Assembly: GCA_963768175.1 (NCBI GenBank)
Contig: CAVYGQ010000001.1
Coordinates: forward strand, 510,305 to 574,304
Direction of reading: 5' to 3'
Origin: Candidatus Doudnabacteria bacterium
GTDB lineage: Bacteria; Patescibacteriota; Doudnabacteria; UBA920
DNA length: 64,000 nt
In this document: piece by piece, positions 10,117 to 64,000 of the stretch
How the letters are laid out: each line of letters begins with the position of its first letter
Numbering within the stretch: the first letter of the stretch is position 1
Position numbers and translations under genes: made by a program
The notes under the pieces: generated by a model
Told to the model about the DNA's origin: nothing
The model's input: only the letters and a program-made list of their open reading frames with translations
Database searches by the model: none

Positions 10117-10147
10117 AACCCCGGGGCTTTGGCTTCGGGGTTTTGGT
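10117..10147 (-). terminator. Hairpin plus U-tract immediately after the hicA stop
   Basis: AAAACCCCG...CGGGGTTTT stem with a T/A run on both sides. Confidence 0.4.
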
Positions 10148-10341: not shown

Positions 10342-10346
10342 AAAAG

Positions 10347-12909: not shown

Positions 12910-13464
12910 TCATTTTTTTAAATAAAAATTCGCCGTCATGCTTGCGGTCACGTTTCCGCCGTCGGCGGCCTCTATGGAAATATTGGTCGGGTTGGTAATA
13001 AATTTTAAATGCTCGAGGCTCTCAATAAAATTTACGACCTGGAAAAAATCTCCGCTTAAACTTATGCTGTACGGCACTATGGCTATCGGGGTTACGGTAT
13101 TGGCGCTTTGCAAAGAGTTAATGGTTCCCGCAACTCCCGAAAGCTGCATTTTTAAATTATACTTGGCGGCCAGATTTTCCAAAGTCTGTATTTCATTTAC
13201 CAGTGAAATATCGCTGGTAAAAAAATCTTCTGGCTGCGGCGATTTTTCATTCGCCAGTTTATCCAAATCGGCCTGGGCCTGTTTATAGCTGGCGTATTGA
13301 GCCTGCAAAGCCGCCAAGTTACTTCTCTCCTGGGCCATAGAATCCAAAGTGGCTTGATTTTGGTTATCAAGCAGTTTGAACAAATACATGAACATCACCA
13401 CGCTTAAAATCAGCCACACCAGTAGCAGTAATATTATTTTATTTTTTGCGGATATCTTTCTCAT
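12910..13464 (-). CDS. pilO: Type IV pilus assembly protein PilO-like
   Basis: N-terminal TM helix, coiled-coil, then a periplasmic domain. Position after pilM and pilN. Confidence 0.55.
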   Translation of the reverse strand: MRKISAKNKIILLLLVWLILSVVMFMYLFKLLDNQNQATLDSMAQERSNLAALQAQYASYKQAQADLDKLANEKSPQPEDFFTSDISLVNEIQTLENLAAKYNLKMQLSGVAGTINSLQSANTVTPIAIVPYSISLSGDFFQVVNFIESLEHLKFITNPTNISIEAADGGNVTASMTANFYLKK

Positions 13465-13477
13465 ATGCCAATTACAA

Positions 13478-14035
13478 TTACTGCTGTAAAAGTTTATCCT
13501 GAATTTTAAAAGTAAAATGGTAATTCACGTTCACCGGGTTTACCACATTTTCCAAAGGATAATCTATGCCGTAAAAATCATCGGTGTCCCGTAAAATATT
13601 ATTGTAAAGCGCAATTACCAAATCACGAGTGGGGCTAAGTCCAGTAATATTGATTGTTTTTTGGATTGGGTTAATGGTAAAAGTGCTGATTTTAACACCG
13701 GGCGGCGGCAAAGGCGCAAAAGCCTTAATTACCTTAGACCAATGGGGCGAGCTATTGGCTAAATTCAGGTAATCTGAAACCAAATTATTAACCGCTGCGA
13801 TTTTGGCTTTAATTTCGGTATTTTGCTGTTTGTTTACCTGGCTCTGCAGCTGCGCGACCTGTTGCTTAATGGCATTATCCTCATACTGCAAATAAAATTT
13901 TGTGGCAAACTGGGCTAAAAAAACCAAAATAAAACTGACCAAAGAAAGATTGACTACAACCCAGAGGCTATGTAGTATAATTTCGTAGCGCAGTTCCTGC
14001 TGTCTGGTTTTGGGTAAAAGATTGATGGTCTTCAT
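13478..14035 (-). CDS. pilN: Type IV pilus assembly protein PilN-like
   Basis: INLLP motif at the N-terminus, single TM helix, coiled-coil. Likely start at the internal Met (MKTINLLPK). Confidence 0.6.
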   Translation of the reverse strand: MKTINLLPKTRQQELRYEIILHSLWVVVNLSLVSFILVFLAQFATKFYLQYEDNAIKQQVAQLQSQVNKQQNTEIKAKIAAVNNLVSDYLNLANSSPHWSKVIKAFAPLPPPGVKISTFTINPIQKTINITGLSPTRDLVIALYNNILRDTDDFYGIDYPLENVVNPVNVNYHFTFKIQDKLLQQ

Positions 14036-14039
14036 CGCT

Positions 14040-15146
14040 TTAATTGGCCTCGTAGGCGGCGCCTCTAGCGGCAAGGCCTATTGCCGTGGCAAAACTCAAA
14101 CTTTCTAAAACGCCTAAGTGTTCGCTATTGGTTATTTTTAAATTTTGCAAAGGGTTAGCTAATTCCACGTTGGACACTCCCACTTCCGAAAGCTGGGTCG
14201 CCAGAAATTCCGGCAAATTCTTAAGCTTACCGCTGCCGCCGGCAATAATAACCCTTTGGACTTGGTTTAAAGAATGCTCGCCATGAAATTTTAGGATATT
14301 TTTTATCTCCGCGGCCAAATTATATAATACCGGTAAAAGCTCGGTCTTGATATTCGGGTATTCCGTGGTGTTAGCAATACCGACTTTTTTCTTAATTTCT
14401 TCGGCTTTGCTGCTGGAAACGCCGAGGGCCCTGGCAATACTTTCGGTAAAAGTATTGCCGGCAATAGGGATGGTAGAAGTAAACTGTAAATTGCCCTGTT
14501 CTACCATTATTAAACTGCTGCGGAAACTGCCCAAGTCTACCAAAAGCGAAGTTTCCAGGCTAGCGGGTTTTACAGCCGCCCTTAAACAACTCTGCGATTC
14601 CACTTCCATCGCCACGGTTTTTAGCCCGGCTTTATCCAAGACCTCCAAATACTTGTCAACGAATTCCTTAGGAGAAGCAATCATTAAAACATTCATTTTG
14701 CCCACTTCGGCTAGGCCTGCTTCAACCCGGCCTGCCTCGCCTGGCTGTCCGACGATTTTTTGCCAGTCCAAATAAACCTGATCTATGGGCAAAGGAATAA
14801 AACTCTCGGCTTCAAACGGCACGGCGTTATTGGCTTCACTATCGCTCATTTGTGGAATTTGAATAACACGCACAAAAGATTTGGATTCCGGAAGGCTGGC
14901 AATCACATGGTTAGTATCAAACTTGCCGTATTGCGGCTTATCCAAGGACTGTTTTAACAAAAAGCTAAAAGTTTTAACATCCGTTATCACATCATTAATA
15001 ATTAAGCCTTTTGGCAAAAAAGCCTCATGATAACTTTTTAACCTAAACTGTTTGGCCTGTTGTTCCAGCCTCACAATTTTTAAGGAATTGGCGCTTACAT
15101 CGAGGCCAAAACTGGGCAAAGTTTTAGAAAGGAAGTTAAACTTCAT
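14040..15146 (-). CDS. pilM: Type IV pilus assembly ATPase-like protein PilM (actin/FtsA fold)
   Basis: GLDVSANSLKIV N-terminal motif and actin-like fold signature. Likely start MKFNFLSK (the ORF track extends to 15188). Confidence 0.75.
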   Translation of the reverse strand: MKFNFLSKTLPSFGLDVSANSLKIVRLEQQAKQFRLKSYHEAFLPKGLIINDVITDVKTFSFLLKQSLDKPQYGKFDTNHVIASLPESKSFVRVIQIPQMSDSEANNAVPFEAESFIPLPIDQVYLDWQKIVGQPGEAGRVEAGLAEVGKMNVLMIASPKEFVDKYLEVLDKAGLKTVAMEVESQSCLRAAVKPASLETSLLVDLGSFRSSLIMVEQGNLQFTSTIPIAGNTFTESIARALGVSSSKAEEIKKKVGIANTTEYPNIKTELLPVLYNLAAEIKNILKFHGEHSLNQVQRVIIAGGSGKLKNLPEFLATQLSEVGVSNVELANPLQNLKITNSEHLGVLESLSFATAIGLAARGAAYEAN

Positions 15147-15150
15147 AAAT

Positions 15151-16359
15151 TTAGCTAGCATTCTGATAAATACTGTATATAGGGGCAATTAGGGCCAAAG
15201 CCAGCAGACCGACAACCGCTCCGATAGTCAAAATAAGCAGCGGCTCAATTACGGAAGCCAAATTTTTTAAGGTGTCATCAACCTCGGCTTCATAGTGAAT
15301 GGCCAGCTGTTCCAAAATTTCCTGCGTACTGCCGCTCTCCTCACCCACGGCTACCATTTGCTGCACCAATACGGGAAAAAGTTTTTCGCTTTTGCTTAAG
15401 GACTCGGCCAGAGGCTTGCCTATCCTGACGTCTTCCGCGGCCTGCACCAGCAGTTCCTTATAAAGCACGTTATCCAACGATTCCGCCACTACTTCTAATC
15501 CCTGAACTATCGGAACTCCGCTTTTAAGCATGGAACTTAAAATTCTGGCAAACCGCGCCAAATTTATTTTTTTTACGATTCCCTTTACCACAAAAAGATT
15601 CAGGCCAACAATACTGGAAGTCCGCTTGCCGGCCGCGGTGCGAAAAAAAGCGACGGACACAACAGCAATACCTATCATTCCCCCAATTGCCAAAACGGCA
15701 TGGTGGCTCATAAGATTGGATATGGCGATGACAATGCGGGTGGTAAGCGGGAGGGCAACGCCCTGCTCGGTAAAAATGGACATTAAGCTCGGCAGGACAA
15801 AAATAGACATAAGCACCCCAATGACAATCATAGCTATCACAATAACCGAAGGATACATCATGGCTCCCTTGACCTTGCTCTTTAAATCGGCTTCCCGCTC
15901 AAGCTGGATGCTTAAATATTCCAGGCTCCTGTCGAGGTTGCCGGAAAGTTCGCCGATTTTTATCATGCTCGTGACAATATTCGGAAACACGCTGGGATAT
16001 TTTGACAAAGCCTCGGCCAGGCTTTTCCCCTGCTGAACCTGATTATAAACATCACTAAGAATGTCCTTAAATTTTTTGTTGTGCGTTTGCTTGACCAAAA
16101 TTTGCAAACAACGGCTTATGGATATCCCGGCTTTGAGCATAACGCCCAAATTTTGCACAAAGTTAATTTTTTCGGACAGTGAAACAAAGGAAAAATTTTT
16201 TAAAAAGGAAAAAGTGGTTTTTGCCCCCTGCTCGCGGATTTCCGTAGGCAAAAGGCCCTGCTCTTTAAGCAGGTGCCCGGCCGTAGCCAAATTCGCCGCC
16301 TCAATTGAGGAGCTTTCTTTGCGGCCGTCTTTGGTTATGGCTGTGTAGGTGAATTCCAT
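15151..16359 (-). CDS. pilC: Type IV pilus inner-membrane platform protein PilC (GspF family)
   Basis: Two T2SS-F repeats and three TM segments; 402 aa. Confidence 0.8.
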   Translation of the reverse strand: MEFTYTAITKDGRKESSSIEAANLATAGHLLKEQGLLPTEIREQGAKTTFSFLKNFSFVSLSEKINFVQNLGVMLKAGISISRCLQILVKQTHNKKFKDILSDVYNQVQQGKSLAEALSKYPSVFPNIVTSMIKIGELSGNLDRSLEYLSIQLEREADLKSKVKGAMMYPSVIVIAMIVIGVLMSIFVLPSLMSIFTEQGVALPLTTRIVIAISNLMSHHAVLAIGGMIGIAVVSVAFFRTAAGKRTSSIVGLNLFVVKGIVKKINLARFARILSSMLKSGVPIVQGLEVVAESLDNVLYKELLVQAAEDVRIGKPLAESLSKSEKLFPVLVQQMVAVGEESGSTQEILEQLAIHYEAEVDDTLKNLASVIEPLLILTIGAVVGLLALALIAPIYSIYQNAS

Positions 16360-16374
16360 AATAATTTAAATTCG

Positions 16375-16500
16375 AAGCACTAAGTCCGAAGTTCGAAACA
16401 AATTCAAATATCTAAATAATAAATTCTAAACTCGAGATATCCCTGTTTAAATATTAAATATTTGTATTTAGATATTGTTTCGGATTTCGATATTCGAATT
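16375..16500. repeat. Long imperfect palindrome (about 45-bp arms) in the pilB-pilC intergenic region. The core inverted repeat is AAATATCTAAATA / TATTTAGATATTT, flanked by TTCGAA and TTTCGAT direct repeats.
   Basis: Seen in sequence; AT-rich, with no ORF. Confidence 0.4.
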
Positions 16501-16507
16501 TCGATTT

Positions 16508-18262
16508 TTATTCCTTTGATACTCTCACCAGTTCCTCAATAGTCGTAATACCCCGTGCCGCCTTAATAAAACCGTCTTCCCACATTAAAATCATACCTTC
16601 TTTTTCCCCCTGTTCCTGAATTTCCTGGGAGCTTTTATGGGCCATGATCATTTGGGCTATAGCCGGAGTCACCTCCAATATTTCGTGAATGCCCAACCGG
16701 CCCCGGTAGCCGGTTTTGGAACACTTATCACAGCCCTCGCCTCTGTAAAACTTTACTTCTTTTAAGCTTTTGCATTTGGCCGGAGCCACTCCCGCGCGCG
16801 TTAAGACCGGCAAAAGTTTGTCCAAATGGAATTGCTTGGACAAAGCTTCTATCGCGGCATCATCCAAAACAAACGGTTTTTGGCAGTCTTTGCAAATTAC
16901 CCTGACTAACCTCTGGGCCAAAACGGCGTTTATGGTAGAAGCGATTAAGTATGGCTCCACGCCAATGTCTAAAAGCCTGGGCAGGGCCGAGGCCGCGTCG
17001 TTGGTATGCAAAGTGGAAAACACAATGTGCCCGGTCATGGCGGCGTGGACCGCCTCTTCGGCGGTTTCCTTGTCGCGGATTTCGCCGATCATAATAATAT
17101 TCGGGTCTTGCCGAAGCAACGCCCGCAGACCCACATCAAAAGTCAAACCGATTTTAGGATTAACCTGCATCTGGTTGGCGCCGACAATCCGGTATTCAAC
17201 GGGGTCTTCAATGGTGGAAATATTGACGCTTTTTGTATTAAGCATGGACAGCACAGTATACAAAGTCGTGGATTTTCCGCTGCCGGTCGGGCCGGTAACC
17301 AAAAGCATGCCGTGGGGTCTTTTTACGTTGCGGTTAATGACTTCATACGAATCTTTTTCAAAACCCAGCTCTTCCAAAGTCATGGCTTTGGCCGATTCGT
17401 CCAAAAGCCGGATAACGACTTTTTCACCGTCAAAAATCGGAATGGTGGATACGCGCAAAGAAAACTTATAGCCGTCTTTTTCTATTTTAAACCTTCCGTC
17501 CTGCGGCAGGCGATGCTCATCTATTTTTAGGTTGGAGATAACTTTAATGCGCGCAACAATTGCCGCCTGGATGACTTTAGGCAATGTCATAACATCGTGC
17601 AGGACTCCGTCTATGCGGTAACGCACGGTCACGGCGTTTTCCTGGGGCTCTATGTGGATGTCGCTGGCCTTTTCCAATACCGCGTATTCCAGCAGCGTGT
17701 CCACCACGCGGATAACCGGAATTTCCTCGGCCATTTTTTTTAAATTATCATCCTTCGCGCTTTCCCCTTCCGCTTGAGCAGCCAAGGGTTTGGATGACGG
17801 CGAAAACAAATGTTTTATTTCCTTTTCCAGGGAGGAATGGTATTTGGAAAGGCCAAAATCCAAACTGGCGCGGCCGATTAAAAAAGTCTTGATTTTCAGG
17901 CCGGTCTTTTTTTGGATAAACTCTTTGGTCTGGATATCTTCCGGATCCTGCATGGCTAAAGACAGCTCGTCCTTAGTTTTGGCAAAGCTAATAACCTGAT
18001 GGCGGTGGGCAATAGGCTCCGGCACCAAATTGAGCACGTCCTGGGGAATTTGCAGGGTGGTTAAATCTATAATCGGAGCACTAAGCAGCTGGCTTTTAAG
18101 CGCCAAAAGTTGCTGTTCAGTTACCGCTTTCTTTTCAATTAAAAAATCTTCCCAAGTTGTTGGGATTTTTACCTGAGACAAATCCTTTTCCAAAACTTCC
18201 AGCTTGTCCTCGGTTAAAATTTTATTTTGTTTTAAAGCCGTGTTTAACTCTTGTTTGTCCAT
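16508..18262 (-). CDS. pilB: Type IV pilus assembly ATPase PilB (GspE family)
   Basis: Walker A GPTGSGKST, GspE N-terminal domain, and the tetracysteine motif CKDC...CDKC. Confidence 0.85.
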   Translation of the reverse strand: MDKQELNTALKQNKILTEDKLEVLEKDLSQVKIPTTWEDFLIEKKAVTEQQLLALKSQLLSAPIIDLTTLQIPQDVLNLVPEPIAHRHQVISFAKTKDELSLAMQDPEDIQTKEFIQKKTGLKIKTFLIGRASLDFGLSKYHSSLEKEIKHLFSPSSKPLAAQAEGESAKDDNLKKMAEEIPVIRVVDTLLEYAVLEKASDIHIEPQENAVTVRYRIDGVLHDVMTLPKVIQAAIVARIKVISNLKIDEHRLPQDGRFKIEKDGYKFSLRVSTIPIFDGEKVVIRLLDESAKAMTLEELGFEKDSYEVINRNVKRPHGMLLVTGPTGSGKSTTLYTVLSMLNTKSVNISTIEDPVEYRIVGANQMQVNPKIGLTFDVGLRALLRQDPNIIMIGEIRDKETAEEAVHAAMTGHIVFSTLHTNDAASALPRLLDIGVEPYLIASTINAVLAQRLVRVICKDCQKPFVLDDAAIEALSKQFHLDKLLPVLTRAGVAPAKCKSLKEVKFYRGEGCDKCSKTGYRGRLGIHEILEVTPAIAQMIMAHKSSQEIQEQGEKEGMILMWEDGFIKAARGITTIEELVRVSKE

Positions 18263-37386: not shown

Positions 37387-38560
37387 TTATTTTATCGGCA
37401 GAACTCCCTGATGACACCCCAAAACCATGCCGGTTTTCATAATTCGCTCGGTATTGGGATATTCTTTCTGTGCCAGCCGGCGGGGAATTTTTTTAAAGCC
37501 GGGCTGCTTTAAAATATTGCCCGTAAAAATCGGGCGGGTTTGGATATTGGAATTCTCCAAAAATGTTACTAAGTCAAAACGCGAAAACGGGGCGGAAAAT
37601 TTTATGATTATGGGAAAAGACAGCCAGACGGTATCGGCGTTTTCCGTAGTTTTGGGTAAGATAAAATATTTTTCGTATTTTTGGAAAAATCGGTATAACC
37701 GGTTAAAGCTGTCTTTTCGGATTTTAGCGAACTTTGGCAGTCTTTTCAGCTGCTCCAGGGCAAAGGCTGAAGAAATTTCCAGAGGCAAAAAATTGTAGCC
37801 AATTTCGCTAAAAATAAATTTATTATCATACGGCACACCGCCGATCTTGCTTCTGAAACGATTAGCTAAAATTTCCGAATTTTGTTTCTCGCCAAAAAGG
37901 GACGACTGCCGCCCCAGCCGCGCAATACTACCAAACGATCCGCCCAAGCTGGATTGTTAACGCAGACCATTCCCCCGCCACCAGCCCCGTTTATGATATG
38001 CGAACCATAAAAACTGGTAGTGGTAATGTCGGAATATCTACCAGTTGGCCGGCCGGCAAATTAACCGCCCAGGGTGTCGCAGGAGTCCTCAATAAAAAAC
38101 AATTTGTGTTTTTTTGCAATGGCAGCCAAGCGCTTCATGTTGGGATGTTTCCCAACAGGGAAGGTATCATCAACGCGCGGGTTTTTTTGGTAATGGCCTT
38201 TTCTAATTGTTCAATATTTATTAAATAGGTGTTTAAATCCACATCCACAAAAACCGGTACCAGTCCTTTTTGAATTATCGGAGCTACTGCAGTTGAAAAA
38301 GTCAGTAATGGTGTAATTACTTCGCTGCCCTTGGGCAATTGAAGCAATTCAAATGCAAGCAAATTTGCCGAAGAACCACGATCGACCATAATCCCGTAAT
38401 TTTTCTGAAAAATTTTGGCAATTTTTTTTTCAAACAGCTTGGTTCTGTTTCCCAAAGCGGTATTGTCTTTTAATACTCCCACAACGGCATTAATTTCCTC
38501 TTTACCGTGGACAGATAACGCATACGGTACACGCATATTTTGTAATTTTTTTTTCGGCAT
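37387..38560 (-). pseudogene. DegT/DnrJ/EryC1/StrS-family PLP aminotransferase disrupted by at least 3 frameshifts
   Basis: N-terminal ORF 38135-38560 and C-terminal ORF 37387-37947 are both DegT-like. Hand translation of the 37948-38134 gap shows the middle segment (MKRLAAIAKKHKLFFIEDSCDTLGG, then ...TSFYGSHIINGAGGGGMVCVNNPAWADRLVVLRGWG) in three different frames, with breaks at A/T/G homopolymers. Confidence 0.6.
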
Positions 38561-51867: not shown

Positions 51868-51938
51868 TATGATCTAAATACACCCCCATTATATCAAGAG
51901 GTGTATTTAGGTGTCAATAAGTGTCAATAGAGGCCAAA

Positions 51939-53012
51939 TTACATTATTTTAGAGAAGATATCCACAAAGCGCCGCTGATAAGTATGCTCTTTAATTGTCC
52001 TTTGGTAGCCGGCTTGGGCTATTTGTTTTCTTTGTTCTTCGTGCACCAAAAAGTACCGGCATTTTTCCGCCATGTCCACGGCATTCTTAAACACCGCTAT
52101 TTCTTTTTCGAGTTCGTAATACTCGGCCAAATTATCATCAACGATTTGTGTCAACAAAAATCCGCCGCAAGCCGGAATCTCAAAAGTCCGGCCCTTTATA
52201 GCGCGCCTGCGCATGGACAAAAATGCTCGGGCGTTGGAAACCAAATGGTGGCCGTCAAACCGCAAGCTCCCCTGTTGTTTTTTGACCACTAACTTAGCGG
52301 CATTGCGCAATAGCCCTCTTAGGCCGTAATTGTGGGTTTCCGAAAAATTCAAATTTATTTTGCTGTAGGAAAAAATCTCCAACATTTTCTGCTGGCTCGC
52401 CCGGCCAGCCGGCCAACCATTGCCATAGCTTTCGGCAGGCAACCGATGATTCCTTAAATAATCAATATATTTTCCCCGATTGCCGTAATTCTTTCCCACG
52501 AAAGTTATATTATAGCTTCCGATTTTCCGATTTTCCGATTTTCCGGCCGGTTGGTATAAAAATGTATTAGCCGCCCATTGTGTTTTTATGACATTGGTAA
52601 TGCCATAATGGCGGTAAATTTCCAATGCGCTTGAATCCGTAGTGGACACCATGGTAAACAGCGACGCCCAGTAGCGGGAAAAAACCGGTATACGCCAGTG
52701 GTCATCGGCAAACCAGTTAAAAGTTTTGGTTTTGGTCTTTTTGGTAATATAAGAAATAGTTTCTTTTTCCAATTCTTCTGAAAATAAAAAACAGAATAGC
52801 AAATCCGGCTTGGTCTCCTCAACGGTTGCAATCAGCAGGCGGTTCATCTCCTCCCTGCCGAGAGCCGATGTTTGCTCATCTGTGGCAAAAAATTCCGCCT
52901 CAACGCCGGGCATGCGCTTTAGTGCGTCAAAAAAATTCGCATACTCCATGGACAGCCCCAAAGAGGGTTTGCCATAGTCGTATTTAAAGCTGCAAAAGAG
53001 GATTTTAGTCAT
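51939..53012 (-). CDS. CgeB-like glycosyltransferase (Glyco_trans_1_2 family)
   Basis: C-terminal KGRTFEIPACGGFLLTQ matches the CgeB family motif. Confidence 0.5.
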   Translation of the reverse strand: MTKILFCSFKYDYGKPSLGLSMEYANFFDALKRMPGVEAEFFATDEQTSALGREEMNRLLIATVEETKPDLLFCFLFSEELEKETISYITKKTKTKTFNWFADDHWRIPVFSRYWASLFTMVSTTDSSALEIYRHYGITNVIKTQWAANTFLYQPAGKSENRKIGSYNITFVGKNYGNRGKYIDYLRNHRLPAESYGNGWPAGRASQQKMLEIFSYSKINLNFSETHNYGLRGLLRNAAKLVVKKQQGSLRFDGHHLVSNARAFLSMRRRAIKGRTFEIPACGGFLLTQIVDDNLAEYYELEKEIAVFKNAVDMAEKCRYFLVHEEQRKQIAQAGYQRTIKEHTYQRRFVDIFSKIM

Positions 53013-53184
53013 TTAAAAATTTAAAAATTTAAAAAATAAAATAATTTAAAAATCCTGGCTTTGCAAATAATCAAACAAAACCCGGCCTTGCCTGCCGCCC
53101 CACAAATTTAAGCTAAGCAACTTCATATTGTTGTTGGTGTTTTTTTCAAAAACCTGCGGCTCTAAAAACGGCCGGCAAAGGCCT

Positions 53185-53841
53185 TTAAATCCGGGCTTGC
53201 TTTAAAGCCGCCTCGTATCTTTGGGCGAATTCGTCTATACTGCCTTGGGTTTTGGGATGGGTAAAACCGGCTTCCAAAAGCTCCGGGCTGACAGTTAAAA
53301 TGTCGCCCCTGGTCAGCATAGCCATTTCCAAATCCGCCGGGGTGCGCAGGCTACCGACAATAATTTCGGACTTCAGCCCGTTTTGGACAATAAATTCCTT
53401 GGCGCGGTTGATTTCCCTGACCGAATCCACACCTGCGTCGCGGCCGCGGCAAAAAAACTGGCTGACATAGTCGGCACCCTGCTGCGCCGCTAATGCCAAT
53501 TGCCGAAAAGTCATTAAAGCGGTAACGTTTAATTTATAGCCCTCCGCTTTTAAAATACGGATGGCCTGCATCCCGTGGATATTGCCGGGGATTTTGATAA
53601 TTATATTTGACCCTATGGTAGCCAGCTTCCTGGCATCCTGACAAATTTGCTCGGTGGAATTGGCGTAAACCACTTCCGCGCTTATCGGCAAAGTCGGCAC
53701 CAAGGCGCACATTTGAGCCAACTTCTCTTCCTGCTTTATTCCCTCTTTGCTCATAATAGCCGGATTGCTGGTCACGCCGTCCACTAACTTTTGGTATTTT
53801 TTTATGGCCTCCAAATTCGCTGTATCCAAATAAAACTTCAT
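53185..53841 (-). CDS. tal: Transaldolase / fructose-6-phosphate aldolase (TalC/FsaA short subfamily)
   Basis: MKFYLDTANLEAI...VTSNP; 218 aa from the internal Met. The ORF track start at 53871 is 10 codons longer. Confidence 0.8.
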   Translation of the reverse strand: MKFYLDTANLEAIKKYQKLVDGVTSNPAIMSKEGIKQEEKLAQMCALVPTLPISAEVVYANSTEQICQDARKLATIGSNIIIKIPGNIHGMQAIRILKAEGYKLNVTALMTFRQLALAAQQGADYVSQFFCRGRDAGVDSVREINRAKEFIVQNGLKSEIIVGSLRTPADLEMAMLTRGDILTVSPELLEAGFTHPKTQGSIDEFAQRYEAALKQARI

Positions 53842-53924
53842 AAATTGGCGGTTAATATTAATTAATATCAAATAATAGCACGGCTAAGCTTTAAAAGCAA
53901 GCCATTGTTAGCTATAATGTCCTT

Positions 53925-55028
53925 ATGCGTTTATTATACATTATAACCTCGGCCGACGGCGGCGGGGCGCAAAAATACGTCTTGGATTTAGCCGAATACT
54001 TTAAAGCGCCGATTGCCGCGGGCAACGAAACCGGCCGGCTTTTTGAACAGGCCAAAGCCCGCGGCCTTTCAACTTTTGGGCTCAAACATTTAAAAAGAAA
54101 CCTGCACCCTCGGCACGATTTTTTGGCCGTTGGGGAAATTTACCGCATTATTAAATTAACCAACCCCGACATTGTCCATCTCAATTCCAGCAAGGCCGGG
54201 GTATTGGGCGCCGTGGCCGCGAAACTGGCCCGCAAAAAAGTAATTTTTACGGCTCACGGCATGTATTACTTTACCAATACGCCGCCGCTTAAAAGATGGG
54301 CTTATGCCTTGGCCGAAAAATTTGCCGCGCTGTTTTGGGACCGGCTCATTGCCGTAAGCAAAAAAGATGCCAGCTTGGCACTAAAATACCACTTGTTGCC
54401 GGCCAAAAACATTAACGCAATTTATAACGGTTTGCCGCCCATCGTTTTTTTACCAAGAGACCAGGCCCAAAAACAATTAGGAGCCAGCCCAGATAAAATA
54501 ATCTTAGGCTGCGTTGCCCAATATTACCACCGAAAAGGCCTTGATATTTTAATTCAGGCGGCCGCGGCTTTGCCGCAACAGCTGAGGCAGAATACGGAGA
54601 TTTTTTTAATCGGACAGGGGCCGGAGCGGACAAATTTGGAAAAACTGATTAGAGACCTGAATCTGCAAAAAACCGTCAGTCTAAAAAACTTCCAAGCCCA
54701 GGCTTCTACCCTGCTTAAGGCTTTGGATGTTTTTGTTTTGCCTTCCCGCTACGAAGGCCTCCCTTACGCCCTTTTGGAAGCCATGCAGGCCGGCTTGCCC
54801 ATAATAGCGACAAAAGTCGGCGGCAACGCCGAGGCTTTGGGCGATGCCGGAGTTCTGGTTGAGCCAGAAAACAGCAAAGCTTTAGCCGAGGCCATCACAA
54901 ATTTAATCGGCAACGAGCCGATGAGAAGCACCCTTTCCCAAAAAGCCTTGGAGCAATCCAAACTTTTTACCGAAGAAAAAATGCTAGCGGAAACCGAAAA
55001 AGTTTACATAAAAATGCTAAATAGATAA
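53925..55028 (+). CDS. Glycosyltransferase family 4 (GT-B)
   Basis: LLYIITSADGGGAQKYV N-terminus and the C-terminal EGLPYALLEAMQAGLPIIAT motif. Confidence 0.75.
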   Translation: MRLLYIITSADGGGAQKYVLDLAEYFKAPIAAGNETGRLFEQAKARGLSTFGLKHLKRNLHPRHDFLAVGEIYRIIKLTNPDIVHLNSSKAGVLGAVAAKLARKKVIFTAHGMYYFTNTPPLKRWAYALAEKFAALFWDRLIAVSKKDASLALKYHLLPAKNINAIYNGLPPIVFLPRDQAQKQLGASPDKIILGCVAQYYHRKGLDILIQAAAALPQQLRQNTEIFLIGQGPERTNLEKLIRDLNLQKTVSLKNFQAQASTLLKALDVFVLPSRYEGLPYALLEAMQAGLPIIATKVGGNAEALGDAGVLVEPENSKALAEAITNLIGNEPMRSTLSQKALEQSKLFTEEKMLAETEKVYIKMLNR

Positions 55029-55086
55029 CAACCAATCAATAGAGGGGACACCTCTTCCAGAGGTGTCCCCTCTATTTCGCATAACC

Positions 55087-57324
55087 TTATTTAAGGGAAT
55101 TTATAAAATCCTGAAAATGCTTGGCATCAGCGGCATCTTGGGTAATTAACGATTGGGCGATGGCAATGGCCTCTTGCTTGTTGCCAAGCTTGGCGTCATC
55201 CTGCGCCAAGGCCCAAAGATCCTGCAAAGCGCTCGGGTCAATTTTTACCGCGAGCCGGTAAACATCCGCGGCAGCGGCAAAATTATTTTGCTTATCGTAT
55301 AAAGCCCCAAGCCAGTCAATTTGCCTGGCCGCGGTGGGCTGGTAGCCGGAGTTTAGAACCTCCCGGGCGGTTTGCATAGCTTTATCGCTTTGGTTGGAAT
55401 AATAGTAAATAACCGCAAGCTGAAGTTTTGCTTCGTTATCCTGCGGGATATCGCCGACGATTTTTTCATATATGGCCGCCGCTGCCGTTAGATTATTTTG
55501 CGAAATGTCAAGGCGGGCCAGCATTTCCTCGGGCTCCGGGCGCTTGGGCGCCAAATTCACGGCTGTTTGGGCGGCCAATACTGCATTTGGATCCAAAGCG
55601 GTTTTGTTATAAATGGAATTTGCCAAATACAGGTTGGAAAGATCCTGCCAAGCGGTCGGATCGTTAGGCACCCGCTTTACAGCCTCCTGCTCAGCATTAA
55701 TGGCATCCTGCAGATTTTGACTAATGAACTGGGCTGTTACGCCTGAAGGAGGATTGCCCGCCAAACTCGTGGCAAAATCCGCATACTTTAAGATAAATTG
55801 GACGGGGTCAAAATCAAACGGAGAATTTAACCCTTTGTCAAAATAACTTTTGGCAATTTGCGGGTCAACGGCGGCATAGGCATAGCCGAAATTTACGTCC
55901 TTAGCCACCTGTAGGCCGGTAATATTGCCCAAATAAACAACATATAAAATTACCACGGCCGATATGCCGAACGCCACGCCGGAAAACATCGGATCCAAAC
56001 CGGATTTCCTGTTTTTGTTCGGCGCATCAACCGCGCGTGATTCGTGCCACAAATAAGCCATCAAGCCGATATATATAAAAAATGCCATGCTGGCGCCGAC
56101 GGTATCAAAGACGAATAAATTTTGGATTTGGTAAACTATCAGCCCGCAGACCAACAAACAAAATTCCGGCAGGAGCAAAATTTGTTTGCGGAAGGCCGCC
56201 CACATCGCCCAGAGGGAAAACACCAGCAAACCCAGGTAAGCGGCAAAGCCAAAAATTCCGCTGGTCACCAAAACTTCTATTAAATAATTGTGCGGCTTGT
56301 CAAACCAGCTGGGGTCGTACTGGTAAATTGCGGGGTTGTAATATTTATTGGAAATAAAATAATAATTTTCCGGCCCCACGCCCAAAATCGGATGGTCTTT
56401 ATAGCCCTTAAGCGCCACCCCCCACTGTATCAGCCTGGCCTCAGTATTAACGTCGTTAAGGTTAAACACGCGATGCAGCATCCCCCCTTGCGGAAGATCG
56501 GCATGAAACGTAAACAGTAAAACAACAATAACTCCGAATGCCACGACTAAGGAGCCACCCCATATCCTAATTTTCCTGGCAGGATTTAAAACAACATATA
56601 AGACCGCCGCGACAAAAATACCGATACCCAAACCCACCACGCAGCCGCGGGTCTCGCTCAAAAAAATTACCCAAGCCTGGAGCAGTACAAATACCCAATA
56701 CATAATTTTTTTCCATACCGCCTCTTCCGAAACGGCAAAAAACGCGGCCAAAAACATCGGAATTACCATGAAACTGGCAATGAATATCGGGTTGCCAAAA
56801 GTGCCGGAAACCCTGCGGGTAAGAAGGGTCGTTAAGTAAAAAATGATTATGCGTCAACTGGACCATAACGCCGTCCAAAGAAAGGGTTACTCCAATGCCG
56901 ACCAAAAACTGTAAAAATAGACGCAAATAACGGACATTCATTTGCCCTATCATTAAAACGTAAAAATATAGCAAACAAAGATGGGCTAAATAAAACACGC
57001 CGCCCATGCGCTCAAAGTTGCCCCAAATGCTGCGCAAAGGATTAACCCCGAACAGTCCGGCAATCAGGTTAAACAAAAAAAAGCCAATATGGAAATAGTC
57101 AGGGGGTTTTTAAACGACGGGCGGTATTGGGGGTAGCGCAAAAATAAATACAAATAAAACGGCAGTGCCAATTCCACCAAAATACGGAGATAAAAAGCTT
57201 TGGAAGTGACAAAAGGAAACAGCAATTCCTTAAATACCATAAATGGCGTCAGCATCGCCAAAGCAACCAAACCGATAAATACAAAAGAAACAAATTTTTT
57301 ATTCACCCCGTTAGAAGTCGCCAT
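55087..57324 (-). CDS. O-antigen ligase/polymerase-like membrane protein (Wzy_C domain) fused to C-terminal TPR repeats. The coding sequence is split over three overlapping ORFs (57064-57324, 56567-57076, 55087-56769) by apparent frameshifts.
   Basis: N-terminal fragment MATSNGVNKKFVSFVFIGLVALAML. The Wzy_C-like region contains LVTSGIFGFAAYLGLLVF. The C-terminal 250 aa are TPR-like. The middle ORF decays into nonsense, consistent with a frameshift near 56.8 kb. Confidence 0.5.
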
Positions 57325-57859
57325 GGTTTTGGTATTTAGATAAAATGATATTAATTTAATGATTTATACCCCGAAAAAATTTTTAAATAACTTCTAACGG
57401 GGTTCATTGTTCGTGGGTCAATTAAGCTATACGATAACTTTACATAATACCGGGTGATTTTTCAAGCAAACATAAAATTTTCAAAAGGGAATCTTTGACC
57501 ATTACATCCTAAAACGCACCAAAACCGCCGTAAATATCGTATTAATAGTCAGACGGAAGGCCGTGCCCCGGCCGAATTTTCAATGTCCTAAAAAGGGTGT
57601 ATAATTATAAAGGATAAATAGATAATTATTAACATTTGAAACAAACAACATTTATTCACCCTGTTAGAAGCTTTAACCATTAAATTGGGGCTTTTAGAAC
57701 AGGGGGTTAAAGTTAAAAAAAATAACACAAAAATATGAACCCCGTTAGACATTTAACTCAAAATAATATTTTTGTAAAATTAAGCATCATTAAAATTATG
57801 AAAAATCTAAAAACAAAAATCATATCTAACGGGGTGAATGCTTCTAACAGGGTAAAAAA
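57301..57859. repeat. Array of at least 6 copies (both orientations) of a roughly 16-bp motif TCTAACGGGGTGAAT / ATTCACCCCGTTAGA between and overlapping the divergent starts of the ligase-like gene and the giant surface-protein gene
   Basis: Copies at 57301 (ATTCACCCCGTTAGAAG), 57391 (CTTCTAACGGGGTTCA), 57651 (ATTCACCCTGTTAGAAG), 57736 (TGAACCCCGTTAGA), 57824 (ATCTAACGGGGTGAATG) and 57841 (CTTCTAACAGGGTA), plus a degenerate copy at 57692. The motif matches the terminal inverted repeat of the typA insertion at 6359. Confidence 0.55.
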
Positions 57860-60513
57860 TAGTTTAACAATCAAGCTTACGGCTGCGGTCTTTGCTTTGT
57901 CCGTATTTGGGGCGGCAGGCACGGCTTTAGCTGCCACGCCGATTTTACAGGTAACCCAAAGCGGCAACAGCTATGTGCTTACGGTCAATAATGCCGATGC
58001 CAATGCCACGGTGAGCCTATACGAAAAACAGAGCGCTTCGCTATGGTCGGTAATCAGCAGTTGGGGCCAAACAAGCAGCAGCGGTAGCTTTAGTGCCACG
58101 CAGCCTTTGGCGTTTGACGGCAGCGGTAACGCCCTGCAATTGTATGTAATGGTCGACGGCCTGCAATCCTCTATAGTCAATGTTTATTCCAGCGGCACCT
58201 GTACCACCAACTGCGGCACCGGCACGCTTAGCCTAAGCCAGATGCTGGTAAATTTAAGCACCAACCAGACCAATGTTGTTACGGCCTACCCGACCAGCGG
58301 CAACATTTACGTTTCCGGCAACAGCAACGCCAATGCCGTAAATTACTCCTTAAACGGCAACCAAATCACCGTAACGGGTGTGGCCACGGGCAGCAGCATT
58401 ATTACCGTCTGCTCAAATGGCGGCAGCCAGTGCGGCACCATAACGGTTTCGGTTAACGGCGCGACTACCACCGGCATCACTTTTGACAACAGCAGCCCCA
58501 CCATTACGCTCGGCCAAAGCCTGAACGTCAATATTTACAGCAGCACGGGCAGCAGCAACGGCTTTTACGTTTCCAGCAACAGCAATGCCAACTCCGTAAA
58601 CGTCACGCAAAGCGGCAGCACGCTGACGATTTACGGCCAGCAGGTCGGCACGGCCAGTATTTCCGTCTGCCAGACCGGCACGTCGTTTTGCGGTACGCTG
58701 TCAGTGACTGTGGGCAGCAACGGCGGCCAAGCCGGCATGACCATAAGCACCAACACGCTCACTTTGCGCCCGGCCAGAGCGGCACGGCCACCGTGTCCAA
58801 TACCTACGGCTCCCTCTACATTTTCAATAACTCCAACAGCAGCGTAATAAGCGCCGGCATCAGCGGCCAGACCGTGACTGTTTACGCGATAGTCGCAGGC
58901 TCAAGCACGTTGAGCATCTGCCAAAACGGCTATAGCGGCTGCGTCAGCCTGTACGTGCAGGTCAGCGGCAGCAACAACTCCATTAGCGGCAGTTTGTCGT
59001 TCGGCACGGCCAATCCGGTTTTAACTATCGGCCAAAGCCAGAGCGATACCATTTATCCCCCAAACGGCAACTCAAACGGCTTTTACATTTCCAGTAACAG
59101 CAACAGTAACGCGGTCAGTACCACAATCAGCGGTTCAACTTTAACGATGTTCGGCCAGAACACCGGTACGGCAACTATTAAAGTTTGCAGCAACGATAAT
59201 TCTTACTGCGGCAATGTTTACGCCACGGTCAACGGCTATAGCGGCGGCGTGACATTCAGCCAGAGCACGGTTAATTTGAATCTCAACCAAAACTCCAGCA
59301 TTACCGTATCCGGCGGCACCGGAAGCTATGTGCTAACCAGCAATACCGGCCCGAACGTGGTTGCGGCCTCATTGACCGGCAGCACGCTGTATTTGAACGC
59401 TTTAAATAACGGCAGCGCCACCATTACGGTTTGCCAAAGCGGCAACACTTCGGCCTGCGGCCAGGTTATTGTAACTGTCGGCGGTTCAAGCAACGGCAAC
59501 AACATTATTACCTTCAGCAACAGCAGCCCGGCCGTGGCAGTCGGCCAAAGCCAGACCGTAACCGTCTACACCACCAACGGCTGGACCGGAAATTATTCCG
59601 TAACAAGCAACAGCAATTCAAACGCGGCAACCGTCAGCGTAACAGGCACTTCAATTAACATTACCGGCATACAAAACGGCAGTACTATTATCACCGTTTG
59701 CCAAACCGGCAGTTCGGTTTGCGGCACCCTGACCGCCACAATCGGTACCGGCGCTACCTCCAGCCCGGTTACTTTTGCCACCACCGGCCTGCCAGCCGGA
59801 ACTGTGGGTTTAAGCTACGGCTACCAGCTTCAGGCCCAGGGCGGCGCGGGAAGTTACACTTATTTCCTACCTTCGGGAAGTTTGCCGGCCGGGATTACGC
59901 TTTCCACTGGCGGGTTAATCCAAGGCATCCCCACTGCCACCGGTACCACCAGTTTTACCCTACAGGTTACCGACAGCGGCGGCACCAGCCAAAACTTGAA
60001 TTTCAGCATTACCGTAAACCCCGCTTCTCCGTCTGCCACAACTCCACAAGCTGCAGGCAATGGCACTTATACAAACGGCCAACTGATTAACGAAAACGGC
60101 ACCATATCAATCGTATACAAAAACACCAAAACCCCCTTTGCCAATGCCGCGGCATTTTTGGGTCTGGGTTTTAAGTTCAGCGATGTGTGGCGGTCAGCAA
60201 TTCCGGCTTGCCGCTTTCCAATAAAATAGTAGTGACGGCCGACGGCGGCCACCCGCGCGGCAGCTGGCTGTTAGTCGGTTCTACGGTTTACTTCCTAACC
60301 CCGAACGGAATGATTCCGATACCAAGCTGGGCAATATTCCTCAGTAACGGCGGCCAAGCAGGTTTTCTGGTCAAGGCCAACAGTTACGACCTTAATTTCC
60401 CCAAACTTCCACTAATGGTAGACAATGATGCAAGGTTGAAAATAATGCTAAAAAGTGACCCCACCTCGACAGAGAGGACACCCGAAACCGCGGATCGAAA
60501 TCCCACCCTTTAA
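57798..60513 (+). CDS. Giant secreted Cys-containing tandem-repeat surface protein. It has a signal peptide, about 8 tandem repeats of roughly 85 aa each with two Cys, a putative Ig (He_PIG-like) domain, and a C-terminal F-x-S-A-x-A-F-x-G-L-G-F module. It is interrupted by at least 2 frameshifts (near 58.75 kb and 60.19 kb).
   Basis: ORFs 57735-58847, 58688-60229 and 60187-60513 are consecutive pieces of one repetitive protein. The signal peptide is MKNLKTKIISNGVN...AVFALSVFGAAGTALA. Confidence 0.55.
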
Positions 60514-60844
60514 ACAAGCGGTTTTTTTATAGGGCTATTAAGTCTCCTAATAAGCCTGTTTTTGGGCGTAACTGTTTACCTGCTTGCCACGCCACACTGG
60601 AAATATTTGATATTGTCGTTTGCAAGGACATGCAAGTCAGTACCTTTGGTCATAACACATAAAAGGTAAGGGTGCGTTAGGTGATAAATAACGCCGCAAT
60701 TGGACAAGGAAATTACCGGCCGTTCGGATTTGAGATATCCACGTTTCGCCGAATTTTTGGGCCACCACGGTCCCTTTGGCAGCGCCTGCCACCAAACCTT
60801 GGCTCTATTCGGCTTGGGACATTATTTTCAAAGCCTTTTCCGAA

Positions 60845-61552
60845 TTACTCCCGGCTTAAATAGGTGGCGTTATAAAGTACCCGCAAGAGCAAAGAATATT
60901 GCTTTGCGGAAATAGCATAATTATTGTCGTTGTCCGGGTTAGGCAAGCCCAAGTCGGTATAAATCTCATTAAAACATTGCTGATTGATATTGTTCAAAAC
61001 ACATTTTTTGCCCCGTTGTCGGAAGAGATTATCATGGCTTCTATTAATTGTTCCACGGTATAACTCTTGCCGACTTGCAAATTTGAAGGGTTTCAAAAGG
61101 TACGCCGTTAATTTGATCCGCGGTGCTGGTGGAATATACCAAAGTTTTTTGCAAAACCGACGGATAGTTTCCGCTTCCTTATAAAATAAGTAATCATAAC
61201 GGCGACCTTCATCATGCTGGCCGGGGCGTAAGCGGTATTTTCGTTAATGCCCACCCAGCGGCCCAAAGTCAAATCGCGGAAATAAAAAGAAAAACCCTGC
61301 AATTGGGAATTATTCTTTCGGCTTACGGCGTTTTGTACTTCATTTATTAAGCAGGTATTCGTCAAATTCCTTAACATTGCCCGGAAGGTCATAGCCCAGC
61401 AAGGGATTAATATACTGTATAAGCATTGTCGTTTTGGCGCGAAGGCTTAACCTGGTCGGCGATATTTTTAATGACGCCATTGTATAAAAATGCCAACAGA
61501 CGGAAGCCACCAATATTCCGGCGATAAAAGCCAGAACGCAATAAACCACCAA
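60845..61552 (-). pseudogene. Possible class A beta-lactamase-like or penicillin-binding-type serine hydrolase split into 3 frames (SxxK-like APASMMKV)
   Basis: Three consecutive short minus-strand ORFs. The N-terminal one has a TM helix; the middle one has a GINENTAYAPASMMKVAVMI motif. Weak assignment. Confidence 0.3.
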
Positions 61553-61664
61553 ACACGGCGATTTTGGAAAAATTTGGTTTTATTTTCGGAATCTTGTTGC
61601 ATTGTAAATTTACAGATTCAATCTATAATTCCCAATTATAGCACACGCCTATGCAATACTGAAA

Positions 61665-61738
61665 GGTGAGCAAAGATTCCCTCAATTGCTCACCTAAATC
61701 AAAACCCCGCTCTGCCTTATGGCGGGGCGGGGTTTTTA
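61665..61738. terminator. Two consecutive hairpins: AGGTGAGCAA...TTGCTCACCT (61665-61696) and AAAACCCCGC...GCGGGGTTTTT (61702-61738). Likely a bidirectional terminator downstream of the minus-strand giant gene.
   Basis: Perfect 10-bp and 8-bp stems with flanking A-tracts and T-tracts. Confidence 0.55.
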
Positions 61739-61789
61739 TTTAGTTTCTTCAATTTCTTCTTATTTCTCAATTTCTACTTCTACGGGCTA

Positions 61790-64000
61790 AGCTGTCCGGT
61801 TACGCGGACAGACATAACGCCGGATTGCTGGAGAATATTTATCCGCGGCATTGGCCGGGACAACATCGGCAAGTTTATAGCCCCAGGTACCAAGCACATC
61901 CATGGAAGGGATACCCATTAAGCTAGCCGGGCCAACCAGTTGGACTGTGCCGTTGTTATTTACCAAAACGCCTGGGCGATGCGCGCTTGCGGCATCGCTG
62001 ATGTTGGAGTTCGTGGCCTAAAACGAGACATCGCCGGTAGTTGTGTGTTTAAAGCTAAAACCCAAACCGGTAAACACGGCGGCCGAAGTAAAGGCCGCCC
62101 TTTTGCCGCCGGTAATAAGATAGCAAGTGCCTTTTACGGCGTAGGAGTTGTCGGTCTGAGCAGACAATTTTGCCGTCCATGGGAGGAATAAACGCGCTAT
62201 CCTGACGTTAAAAGCCTCATCGGCCGCGTTAGCAGGCACTACCTGGCTAAACGACAAATAACCGTAAGACAAAACGCTCCGCCGGAAGTAAAGGCCCTGC
62301 GCGTCCCGTCCGGCATGACAAACCACACCGTGCCGTCCGAAGTCAAAACCGCCGACCCCGGGGCGTGCGCCCCTGCCGTGCCGGGCGCTTGAAGGCCGCC
62401 TCCATTTGAAGGAGGATTCAACAACCGTAGCCGATCCGACCGCAACAGTTACCGTTTGGGTAACCGTGCCGCCGCTGCCGGTAACAGTTAAAATATAAGT
62501 GGTAGTGACCGCAGGAGTCACGGTTTTTGTGCCGGAAACAGCCACAGTCCCAATCCCTTGGTTAATACTAACAGCCGTAGCGTTAGTGGTCGTCCAAGTC
62601 AAAATGGCCGACTGTCCGGTGGTAATAGTAGTATAGTTGGTGCTAAAAAGGCTGTAGGAGCCGGGCAGTATAAGACCCACCGCCGCCTCCACCTCCGCCG
62701 CCTCCGTAATAAGCCAAAGGACCAATACTGGCAGAAGTGGCGCTATCGTGCCCGTTGGCGGTAAATTTCAAAGTAAACGTTTCGTTTGGTTGAGAATAAG
62801 TTAAGGTGCTAAAGGTAGCCAACCCGGCTCCCCCGGCGGTATTTGCCGTGGCATTAGTTAAGGGCCGTTTTCTGAAACTACGCTCGCGGTAACAGTCACC
62901 CCATCGGCCACATTATTACCCTGCTGATCGACGACTTGGACAACCGGTTGGGTGGAAATCGGATAAATCGTATAAGTTCCGCTTCCTGCAGGCTGTGGGG
63001 TTATAGTTAGAGCATAAGCCGCACCGGGATTTAAAGCCAAAACCGAAGTTGTGGCGCTGTTGTAACCGTTAGACTGGAATTTTACGACAAACTGGCTTCG
63101 CCGTGATTTTTAAAATACTCCCAAGAAAGGTGGAAAAAGTAGCTAAACCGGATACCGTGGTTGTGGAAGTATTCCGCAAAACGCCGGTGCCCGATGTGGT
63201 AGTGGCGGTCACGCTAGTACCATCAGTCACATTATTGCCATAAACATCCTGGACTAAAATTACCGGCTGGGTTTGCAAAGCCGTATCTCAACTGTGCCGT
63301 TGGTGTTGGCAGTGCGGGCGTGTTTAAGGTTAAAACGCCGTTCCTGCTCGGATTGACAGTTATGCCGCTCTGACTGCCGGTCTTGGGGGAATCGGTCACG
63401 GTTACGCTCTGCGTGCCCGACTTTATCAGAACCAAGCCATTAGTAAAGGCATGGGTCCCCGCTGTCGCCGCCGATGAAAGTATAGGCGGAAGGCAAAGTG
63501 GCTGACGCGTCACTGGAAGAAAATGTGATAGTCCCCAAATAATCGGTCTTGATGTTATTATTGTGTCATAACCAATAACCACAGGCGTGGTGGTGCCGGC
63601 GGCAGTCGGGCTGGCAATGCCGGTTACGGTAAAGTGGTCAATTGCTCCGGGATTAACAGTTACCACGTTGGATGCCGGAGTTGGAGTCAGTGAGCCTGAA
63701 GACCCGATAATGGTAGTAGTGCCGGTTACGGTGCGGGTAACATTATTAAACGTCGCCAAACCGGAAACGGCATTAGTACCGGTGCCATTAATTACAAGAC
63801 CGGTATTCGGCGTAACCGTAACCGCATCTGTATCGGTGAGGTCTGGTTGCCGAACTGGTCGGTAATTTGAATGGTAAATAAGTCCAGGTTGTCCGGGCTG
63901 GCCGTAGCGGTAGTAGGCCGGTTGCTGTTATTGCCCTCATACCAACTTATTTTTTGTCCCCACGACCGTGGCCAATGTGCCAAAAATTAGTCGAGCCGTC
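61790..64000 (-). CDS. C-terminal part of another giant surface protein with Ig-like (Big-type) repeats and a C-terminal F-x-S-A-x-A-F module. It is fragmented into at least 6 ORFs by frameshifts and continues past the window end.
   Basis: ORFs 62018-62725, 62239-62445, 62858-63040, 63069-63278, 63232-63759 and 63792-63983 all contain (Q)PVVQVVDQQGNNVADGVTVTA-type repeats. Hand translation of 61790-62017 gives a further in-family C-terminal segment VLVNNNGTVQLVGPASLMGIPSMDVLGTWGYKLADVVPANAADKY. Confidence 0.5.

Follow-up and report, generated by a model that had tools for sequence, protein, structure and literature searches.

EccB-repeat-like modules at the ends of two Ig-repeat surface-protein genes of Candidatus Doudnabacteria: a candidate cell-wall anchor

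We analysed a 64,000-nucleotide (nt) stretch of DNA from Candidatus Doudnabacteria bacterium (assembly GCA_963768175.1, contig CAVYGQ010000001.1, positions 510,305 to 574,304 of the forward strand; hereafter the window), which ends in two surface-protein genes on opposite strands. Both genes close with copies of a small module that is predicted to fold like the periplasmic repeats of EccB, a core component of type VII secretion (ESX), and that recurs in thousands of other protein clusters. In the reading that we favour, with moderate confidence, the module is a non-covalent cell-wall-binding anchor that would hold adhesin-like proteins made of immunoglobulin-like (Ig-like) domains at the surface.

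The terminal module and its predicted fold

The two genes are laid out as follows.

57798-60513, plus strand: surface-protein gene, ~905 aa after bridging two 1-nt gaps; start MKNLK at 57798
57798-57932, plus strand: signal-peptide-like segment (MKNLK...AAGTALA/ATP) with a hydrophobic stretch; cleavage site (slash) read by eye
57933-58211, plus strand: N-terminal domain of ~95 aa, ending C-T-T-N-C (C-x3-C), ahead of the Cys repeats
58212-59752, plus strand: six tandem Big_2-type Ig-like repeats of 73-89 aa apiece, with C-x6-7-C in each
59768-60019, plus strand: He_PIG (putative Ig) domain, Pfam PF05345, E 2.5e-13, 50.7 bits against a cut-off of 24
60065-60246, plus strand: C-terminal module 1 (…GTISIVYKNTKTPFANAAAFLGLGFKFSDV…); frameshift site 2 (~60187) falls inside it
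60247-60441, plus strand: C-terminal module 2 (HPRGSWLLVGSTVYFLTPNGMIPIPSWAIFLSNGGQAGFLVKANSYDL…NDARLK), a profile match
64000-61780, minus strand: 3' part of the second surface-protein gene, Ig-like segments followed by three modules; its N-terminus lies outside the window
62379-61783, minus strand: the three EccB-repeat-like modules of this gene, from hidden Markov model (HMM) matches; stop TAG at 61782-61780

A first-pass annotation, made from the sequence alone, had described these genes as encoding giant surface proteins with a shared, novel and possibly lineage-specific C-terminal module of ~45 aa. The shared module stands: its core, F-x-S-A-x-x-F-x-G-L-G-F, is present in both genes, in two copies in the plus-strand gene and three in the minus-strand gene, but each copy is ~60 aa long. 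"Giant" does not fit a plus-strand product of only ~905 aa. When a profile built from relatives was run against the six-frame translation of the window, it matched 60065-60441 (E 1e-33 and 1.6e-17) and 62379-61783 (3e-13 and 6e-9), with no match outside the two genes. The window's module had no match in Pfam or NCBIfam, anchoring families included. Furthermore, when the window protein was compared with the same two collections, no anchoring signal of a known kind (SLH, LysM, CWB2, GW, SH3b, PEP-CTERM, LPXTG) was matched at E<=1, and no C-terminal hydrophobic segment was found. In having no match to SLH, LysM, CW_binding, PEP-CTERM or LPXTG the module agrees with the first-pass annotation.

The fold was addressed by structure prediction. 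The AlphaFold2 model of the two-module domain (predicted local distance difference test, pLDDT, 96.3; predicted template modelling score, pTM, 0.88) consists of two similar units, each with the topology strand-strand-strand-helix-short helix-strand, in which the strands form a four-stranded sheet accompanied by two short helices. DSSP assigned the same elements in the two-module and single-module models (strands 7-10, 13-18 and 21-25, helix 28-33, short helix 38-40, strand 41-44), and the pattern recurs in module 2. In a Foldseek comparison of the two-module model with the PDB, the top 11 matches were all EccB periplasmic domains (best E 3e-3), and nothing else meaningful was returned. The single-module model (pLDDT 88.9) likewise gave EccB for all of its top 10 PDB matches, with TM-scores of 0.56-0.67, root-mean-square deviations of 2.4-4.5 Å over 55-67 columns, probabilities of 0.77-0.97 and weak E values (0.09-0.4). 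The solved EccB relatives matched include chains of the ESX-5 periplasmic assembly (7nps, 7np7). The EccB repeat is defined as a four-stranded sheet plus two helices (PMC4769845). As modelled, the module has this EccB repeat fold and so is not a new fold.

Sequence profiles link the multi-copy relatives to the same family. A relative with 16 modules (P0035) scored 39.3 bits for PF05108 (EccB; cut-off 27), and a second (P0036), at 25.7 bits, fell just short. Both align to PF05108 positions ~169-250, which overlap repeat R2 of EccB1 on the assumption that profile and EccB1 are numbered similarly. With an EccB repeat fold and PF05108 matches among its multi-copy relatives, the module is not novel in fold. 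The window protein itself had no match to PF05108 at E<=1, and no type VII secretion families were found in the subset of window open reading frames (ORFs) that was scanned against Pfam. A phmmer search of the 16-module P0035 against the PDB returned nothing.

Phage proteins carry the domain or its fold as well. The phage family phrog_9616 (118 positions, function not assigned) matches stretches of ~117 residues, or about two modules, in P0035 (3e-86), P0037 (2.5e-45) and P0180 (5e-27). The window's own domain had no match to phrog_9616 at E<=0.01, and no PHROG threshold was reached. At the level of structure, the model of the Rhodococcus phage Weasels2 protein A0A1I9SA71 matches that of the window domain (E 1e-5, probability 1.0).

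One other identity was considered and rejected. In a profile search of the PDB, matches to choline-binding (CW_binding_1) proteins were non-significant (E 0.08-3); the choline-binding repeat is a beta-hairpin with a different fold, and the unit predicted here is of 60 aa with helices rather than a hairpin of ~20 aa. When the single-module profile was run against PDB sequences, its only matches, to the "GTVYV" hairpin found in NHL/Pizza propellers, were spurious.

Spread, passengers and possible function

We searched 1.84 billion cluster representatives (50% identity clusters) exhaustively with HMMER, using a 23-sequence profile of the module. This gave 3,100 matches at E<=1e-3, of which 1,679 reached E<=1e-10 and 560 E<=1e-30. 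The module therefore recurs in other proteins, and with 3,100 clusters, a relative labelled Actinomycetota, others from other candidate phyla, and related folds or families in phages, it is not lineage-specific. Genome loci carrying the domain, located by a scan with a 6-sequence alignment, numbered 20. All were metagenome-assembled genomes (MAGs). Most bear the label Candidatus Doudnabacteria and several that of uncultured Candidatus Saccharibacteria, while two are labelled only "uncultured bacterium" or "bacterium"; by these best hits the window would belong to this group. When proteins were searched by word index with the single-module profile, only six short fragments without names were recovered. 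No family model for the free-standing module exists in the copies of Pfam and NCBIfam searched. Our literature searches, which covered EccB-like and PlyCB-like proteins, EccB repeats and EccB together with SpoIID, found no description of the free-standing module; a wider one, on Patescibacteria, cell-wall binding and surface proteins, brought up only general reviews of wall-binding domains already known.

Placement was counted in the best 146 of the 3,100 matches. The module pair lies <=10 aa from the C-terminus in 122 of these and directly after the signal peptide in 16, and the modules number between 2 and 16 per protein. At least two C-x-C repeats are also present in 77/146, and an LPxTG-like motif in just 3/146. 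An N-terminal hydrophobic segment was found in 117 of the 132 long relatives, and a second transmembrane segment in none. Similarly, the first 60 aa of the window's plus-strand protein contain a hydrophobic 15-mer (Kyte-Doolittle 1.95), and no transmembrane segment follows further on.

The other domains of module-bearing proteins (passengers) were surveyed in 60-odd relatives. Ig-like passengers comprise Big_2, PF13629, He_PIG, fn3, PKD, Big_7 and Big_13; the remainder include cupredoxin, CAP, chagasin inhibitor, NAGPA and pectate-lyase-like domains and an RHS toxin (P0036). Two relatives combine the module with wall enzymes: P0180, labelled Candidatus Portnoybacteria, carries Amidase_2, seven modules and SpoIID, and P0037, labelled as a SpoIID/LytB protein of Actinomycetota, carries SpoIID and seven modules. 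Another relative is annotated simply as hypothetical. Such promiscuity towards passengers is typical of a targeting module.

These features fit a wall anchor. The surface proteins would be exported by Sec via a cleavable signal peptide, the Ig-repeat stalk would project outward, and the terminal EccB-repeat-like array would bind peptidoglycan or a wall-linked glycopolymer non-covalently, retaining the protein. Since a signal peptide is present without a membrane helix or a sortase motif, the terminal array would be the surface-retaining part. LysM, SLH, CWB2 and choline-binding modules provide non-covalent wall retention in other monoderm bacteria. The anchoring role suggested in the first-pass annotation is thus consistent with the architecture, in which the module is terminal on secreted proteins that lack a membrane or sortase anchor and bear varied passengers, peptidoglycan hydrolase domains among them. 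The domain architecture, the recurrence of the module, its fold match to EccB and its presence alongside wall hydrolase domains are shown here, whereas wall binding, the nature of the ligand and the very production of the gene products are inferred.

Several points weigh against the anchor. Peptidoglycan binding by the EccB repeats themselves is only a hypothesis (PMC4769845), and what speaks for it in the module is architectural and comparative. The window's own domain lies below every Pfam, NCBIfam and PHROG threshold, and wall hydrolase domains occur in few of the accessible relatives only. Finally, because both genes are disrupted in the window (see below), function in the source organism is not assured.

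Alternatively, the module could be a unit of protein-protein interaction or oligomerisation, for S-layer docking or a surface array, comparable to the EccB periplasmic domains in the ESX complex and not a glycan binder. We think this unlikely. It would agree with the sole solved relatives being EccB periplasmic domains, ESX-5 assembly chains included, with the packing of EccB1 repeats on each other via their N-terminal helices (PMC4769845), and with the prediction of the window's two modules as one compact unit. However, the presence of 2-16 copies at either end of varied secreted proteins, wall hydrolases included, is rather what would be expected of a module that binds a repetitive polymer, and neither an S-layer protein nor a partner gene is conserved beside the genes.

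Candidate phyla radiation episymbionts attach to host or partner bacteria, which raises the question of whose wall is bound. The module might be an adhesin tip for the wall of the host or partner rather than for that of the producer, although we consider this quite unlikely. The fold and the associations with wall enzymes would be the same as for an anchor, an RHS toxin is found among the relatives (P0036), and the phrog_9616 and actinophage matches show the domain or fold in phage proteins, which must act on foreign walls. With no transmembrane segment, lipobox or sortase motif, however, nothing else would hold the protein on its producer. Moreover, the 16 relatives in which the modules directly follow the signal peptide and the remainder of the protein comes after are a better fit to a basal anchor.

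It had further been suggested that the adjacent glycosylation locus acts on these proteins, in which case either the module or the Ser/Thr/Asn-rich repeats would be glycosylated. The plus-strand gene does adjoin a Wzy_C/O-antigen-ligase-like gene with tetratricopeptide (TPR) repeats (55087-57324) and a sugar locus of ~35 kb, some protein O-oligosaccharyltransferases carry Wzy_C, and the repeats of the plus-strand protein are indeed rich in S, T and N. The link is nevertheless one of adjacency. In a synteny test of 20-22 related loci against the window, only the surface gene itself matched, and no flank, sugar genes included, was conserved within 6 kb. We therefore regard this role as improbable, and it would in any case be compatible with an anchor function rather than an alternative to it. 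Least probable is a C-terminal sorting domain that is removed or processed after export by a dedicated export or attachment machine (as with type IX secretion C-terminal domains, PEP-CTERM or LPXTG): the extreme C-terminal position in 122/146 relatives on many passengers would suit it, but N-terminal and internal arrays of up to 16 copies also occur, there is no hydrophobic tail, and no such machine is conserved nearby.

Returning to the wall anchor, we put forward only tentatively a broader proposal, that the two-module unit represents an undescribed, large wall-targeting family beside LysM, SLH and CWB2. This family would serve to bring adhesins, toxins and wall hydrolases to the peptidoglycan in candidate-phylum bacteria, Actinomycetota-labelled relatives and phages, and the EccB periplasmic repeats would be an embedded offshoot of it. 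If true, it would offer the first testable handle on what EccB repeats bind. The genomes of candidate phyla radiation bacteria are tiny, and their surface display and grip on partner cells are poorly known; a terminal module common to their Ig-repeat surface proteins, to wall hydrolases (one labelled Actinomycetota) and to phage proteins would mark the proteins that are wall-associated. Given that none exists in the Pfam and NCBIfam copies searched, the module would merit a family model of its own.

The Cys-pair repeats and the condition of both genes

The description of the plus-strand gene (57.8-60.5 kb) as tandem ~85-aa repeats with two Cys each, followed by an Ig-like domain, was borne out, the last of these being the He_PIG match. 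The number of repeats was revised from about eight to six, which match a profile of their own at E 1e-29 to 1e-34, and they are preceded by the N-terminal domain with C-x3-C. This N-terminal domain matched no family and is kept in the relatives P0041, P0042, L003 and L009. At the other end, a short Pro/Ala/Ser/Thr-rich linker joins the He_PIG domain to the 126-aa C-terminal domain.

The window's repeats score 20.8 bits against Big_2 (PF02368), below the cut-off of 22.8, and are sub-threshold for PF13629 as well. Both families are reached by related proteins: P0042, of the same architecture, matches Big_2 at 42.5 bits, and the orthologue L003 matches PF13629 at 60 bits, each above threshold. 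A profile of 27 repeats (A5), compared with solved structures, found 7z47_G (8e-7), lambda gpV (2l04, 1e-3) and intimin (0.04). Both Cys are invariant across the 27-repeat alignment, and the C-x6-7-C pair is placed in the last strands. Given the scores of these relatives, the matches to solved Big_2-type domains and the invariant Cys, the repeats are, judged by sequence, probably a Cys-pair variant of Big_2. To our knowledge, canonical Big_2 domains lack the C-x6-7-C pair. A disulfide between the two Cys of each repeat is plausible. No tandem repeat is seen at the DNA level in the plus-strand gene; the repeats have diverged.

The first-pass annotation made no mention of the frameshifts that interrupt both genes. 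As sequenced, the plus-strand gene consists of three overlapping ORFs (57735-58847, 58688-60229 and 60187-60513), and three-frame translation showed one protein passing from frame to frame. The following sites are involved.

58763-58767 (~58766), plus strand: frameshift site 1, a base being absent after ...ACT TTG and before CG CCC GGC
~60187, plus strand: frameshift site 2, one base missing in GAT GTG/TGG CGG, at the slash
60439-60445, plus strand: A4 run then TAA, in TTG AAAA TAA (60436-60445); one A fewer gives ...NDARLK and a stop

An intact 887-aa orthologue in another Candidatus Doudnabacteria MAG (L003:3718-6381) is collinear with the window in three frames (aa 4-311, 314-802 and 780-887), and in word-indexed searches the relatives (34, mainly fragments) continue uninterrupted through the window's 60187 frameshift. 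Orthologues end 1-2 residues past ...NDARL, and the window frame extends 23 codons further. Since shortening the A4 run by one A would give ...LK and a stop at this same end point, the gene likely has a third indel of one base, located in a homopolymer. Two Logan contigs from run ERR10755942 were compared with the window. The first (L023) is identical to 51908-56631; the second (L024) spans 57590-59886 without gaps, and thus has the 58766 frameshift too, but shows a T/C difference at 58763, 3 nt from site 1. The two versions of site 1 read CACTTTG and CACCTTG, and CACCCTTG would mend the frame as T-L-T-L-A-P-G, consistent with the orthologues. No exact-protein record was found for the ORFs 60187-60513 and 58793-60229.

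The minus-strand gene is more severely broken. Its pieces are spread across all three minus frames, with an estimated ten or more frame changes over 2.2 kb (counted by eye, not from a computed alignment). By tblastn, the last 600 nt are collinear with intact homologues in L009 and L007 via frames -2, -1 and -2; in the -1 stretch the homologue's sequence is lost locally, and an in-frame TAG stands at 62020-62018. Stop-codon recoding was rejected for this codon, because the stop is TAG and the remaining window reads well in the standard bacterial code. The Q-P-V-V-x-V-x-D-x-x-G-N repeats that had been ascribed to this gene are present as a motif, but only two copies are exact, at 62950 and at 63269 and not in the same frame, and one more is degenerate; the motif scored above threshold for no Pfam family. 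In L007 and L009 the homologue of the three-module block lies a few kb from the homologue of the plus-strand gene, and there it forms the N-terminus of a long protein, unlike the C-terminal placement in the window. A run of ten Gly codons (…AYYGGGGGGGGGGSY…, ~62700-62740, minus strand) separates the Ig-like part from the last domains. It could serve as a flexible linker, and such runs are prone to length errors. Just 3' of the stop codon, and before the hydrolase gene, lies a strong terminator-like hairpin (61701-61736) of 16 pairs, 10 of them G-C, with a T-rich tail.

Other genes of the window are split as well: the Wzy_C/TPR gene at 55087-57324 (minus strand), into three ORFs; a Beta-lactamase2-family serine hydrolase gene at ~60.5-61.4 kb (minus strand); and a DegT/DnrJ aminotransferase gene at 37387-38560 (minus strand), with Pfam positions 4-124 and 206-346 in separate ORFs. 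The disruptions grow denser towards the window end at 64000, which suggests either falling consensus quality or gene decay. For the plus-strand gene, we judge the indels to be probably consensus errors rather than real mutations. The minus-strand gene may be truly decayed or may lie in a poorly resolved stretch.

Fragmentation extends to relatives. Homologous genes are broken in L001, L002 and P0005, whose contig names resemble those of long-read assemblies. In L001 and L002 the module-bearing ORF is short (125-146 aa). Upstream of position 8001, it is preceded in L002 by several small ORFs on the same strand, and homology to the repeat region of the window is seen in L001. A large surface-protein gene is thus probably fragmented in both. 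Repeat-rich genes are often broken in metagenome assemblies, so that the module is mostly seen in short "hypothetical proteins", and many of these are likely assembly fragments. On L001, a 524-kb metagenome contig, positions 1142-2493 also carry a diversity-generating-retroelement signature (bAvd accessory protein and reverse transcriptase), ~6 kb from the module-bearing gene fragment.

Window context and comparison with known systems

The rest of the window contains three further features of note.

18704-55028, almost all minus strand: polysaccharide/glycosylation locus of ~35 kb; Pfam matches to Bac_transf priming transferase, GT4, Glyco_trans_1_2, NAD-dependent epimerase and a Wzx-type flippase
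12910-18262, minus strand: type IV pilus cluster; PilB/T2SSE, PilC/T2SSF and PilM by Pfam, two small downstream ORFs PilN/PilO-like by eye
1-1815, minus strand: secreted surface protein of 605 aa; Big_7, E 1.7e-20

In the sugar locus, nucleotidyl-sugar genes were assigned by eye only, and a transaldolase-like ORF lies at 53185-53871. The protein encoded at 1-1815 has no match to the module, and a homologue of it is encoded by L014; its N-terminal motif "...GQVLGAST..." is also found upstream of the C-terminal module in several relatives. G6PD and BipA genes are present too, and two small adjacent ORFs of 64 and 54 aa at 10147-10511 (minus strand) resemble, by eye only, a HicA/HicB-type toxin-antitoxin system and form a candidate pair. 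G+C content is 0.55 (58001-60000) and 0.52 (62001-64000) in the surface-protein genes, against ~0.44 across the bulk of the window; Gly/Ala/Ser/Thr-rich coding may account for the difference, or the genes may have another origin.

Among known systems, the stalk of the plus-strand protein resembles that of bacterial multi-Ig surface proteins of the Big_2/He_PIG kind, with Big_2-type repeats and He_PIG as the last Ig domain, and differs from them in the invariant C-x6-7-C pair. As for the module, phage proteins (phrog_9616, A0A1I9SA71) have the domain or fold in common, but these are uncharacterised, short proteins that stand alone. PlyCB, the cell-wall-binding subunit of the streptococcal phage C1 lysin PlyC (PDB 4F87), also ranked among the closest known systems. 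LysM, SLH, CWB2, CW_binding_1/choline-binding, SH3b and GW domains are, like the module, small and repeated at one end of secreted proteins, and are similarly common to wall hydrolases and adhesin- or S-layer-type proteins; they differ in having no sequence match to the window's module.

EccB (R1-R4; PF05108; PDB 3X3M, 3X3N, 4KK7, 5CYU, 7NPS) shares the unit of ~55-60 aa and its sheet-plus-two-helices topology. In contrast to EccB, the window proteins come without an N-terminal transmembrane helix or the EccB central core domain, no ESX genes (EccC, EccD, WXG100) were seen among the window ORFs scanned, and the modules are free-standing arrays that end secreted multi-domain proteins. The fold was thus already known, and the observation is not surprising in kind; what is new is the use of EccB-type repeats as a mobile terminal module.

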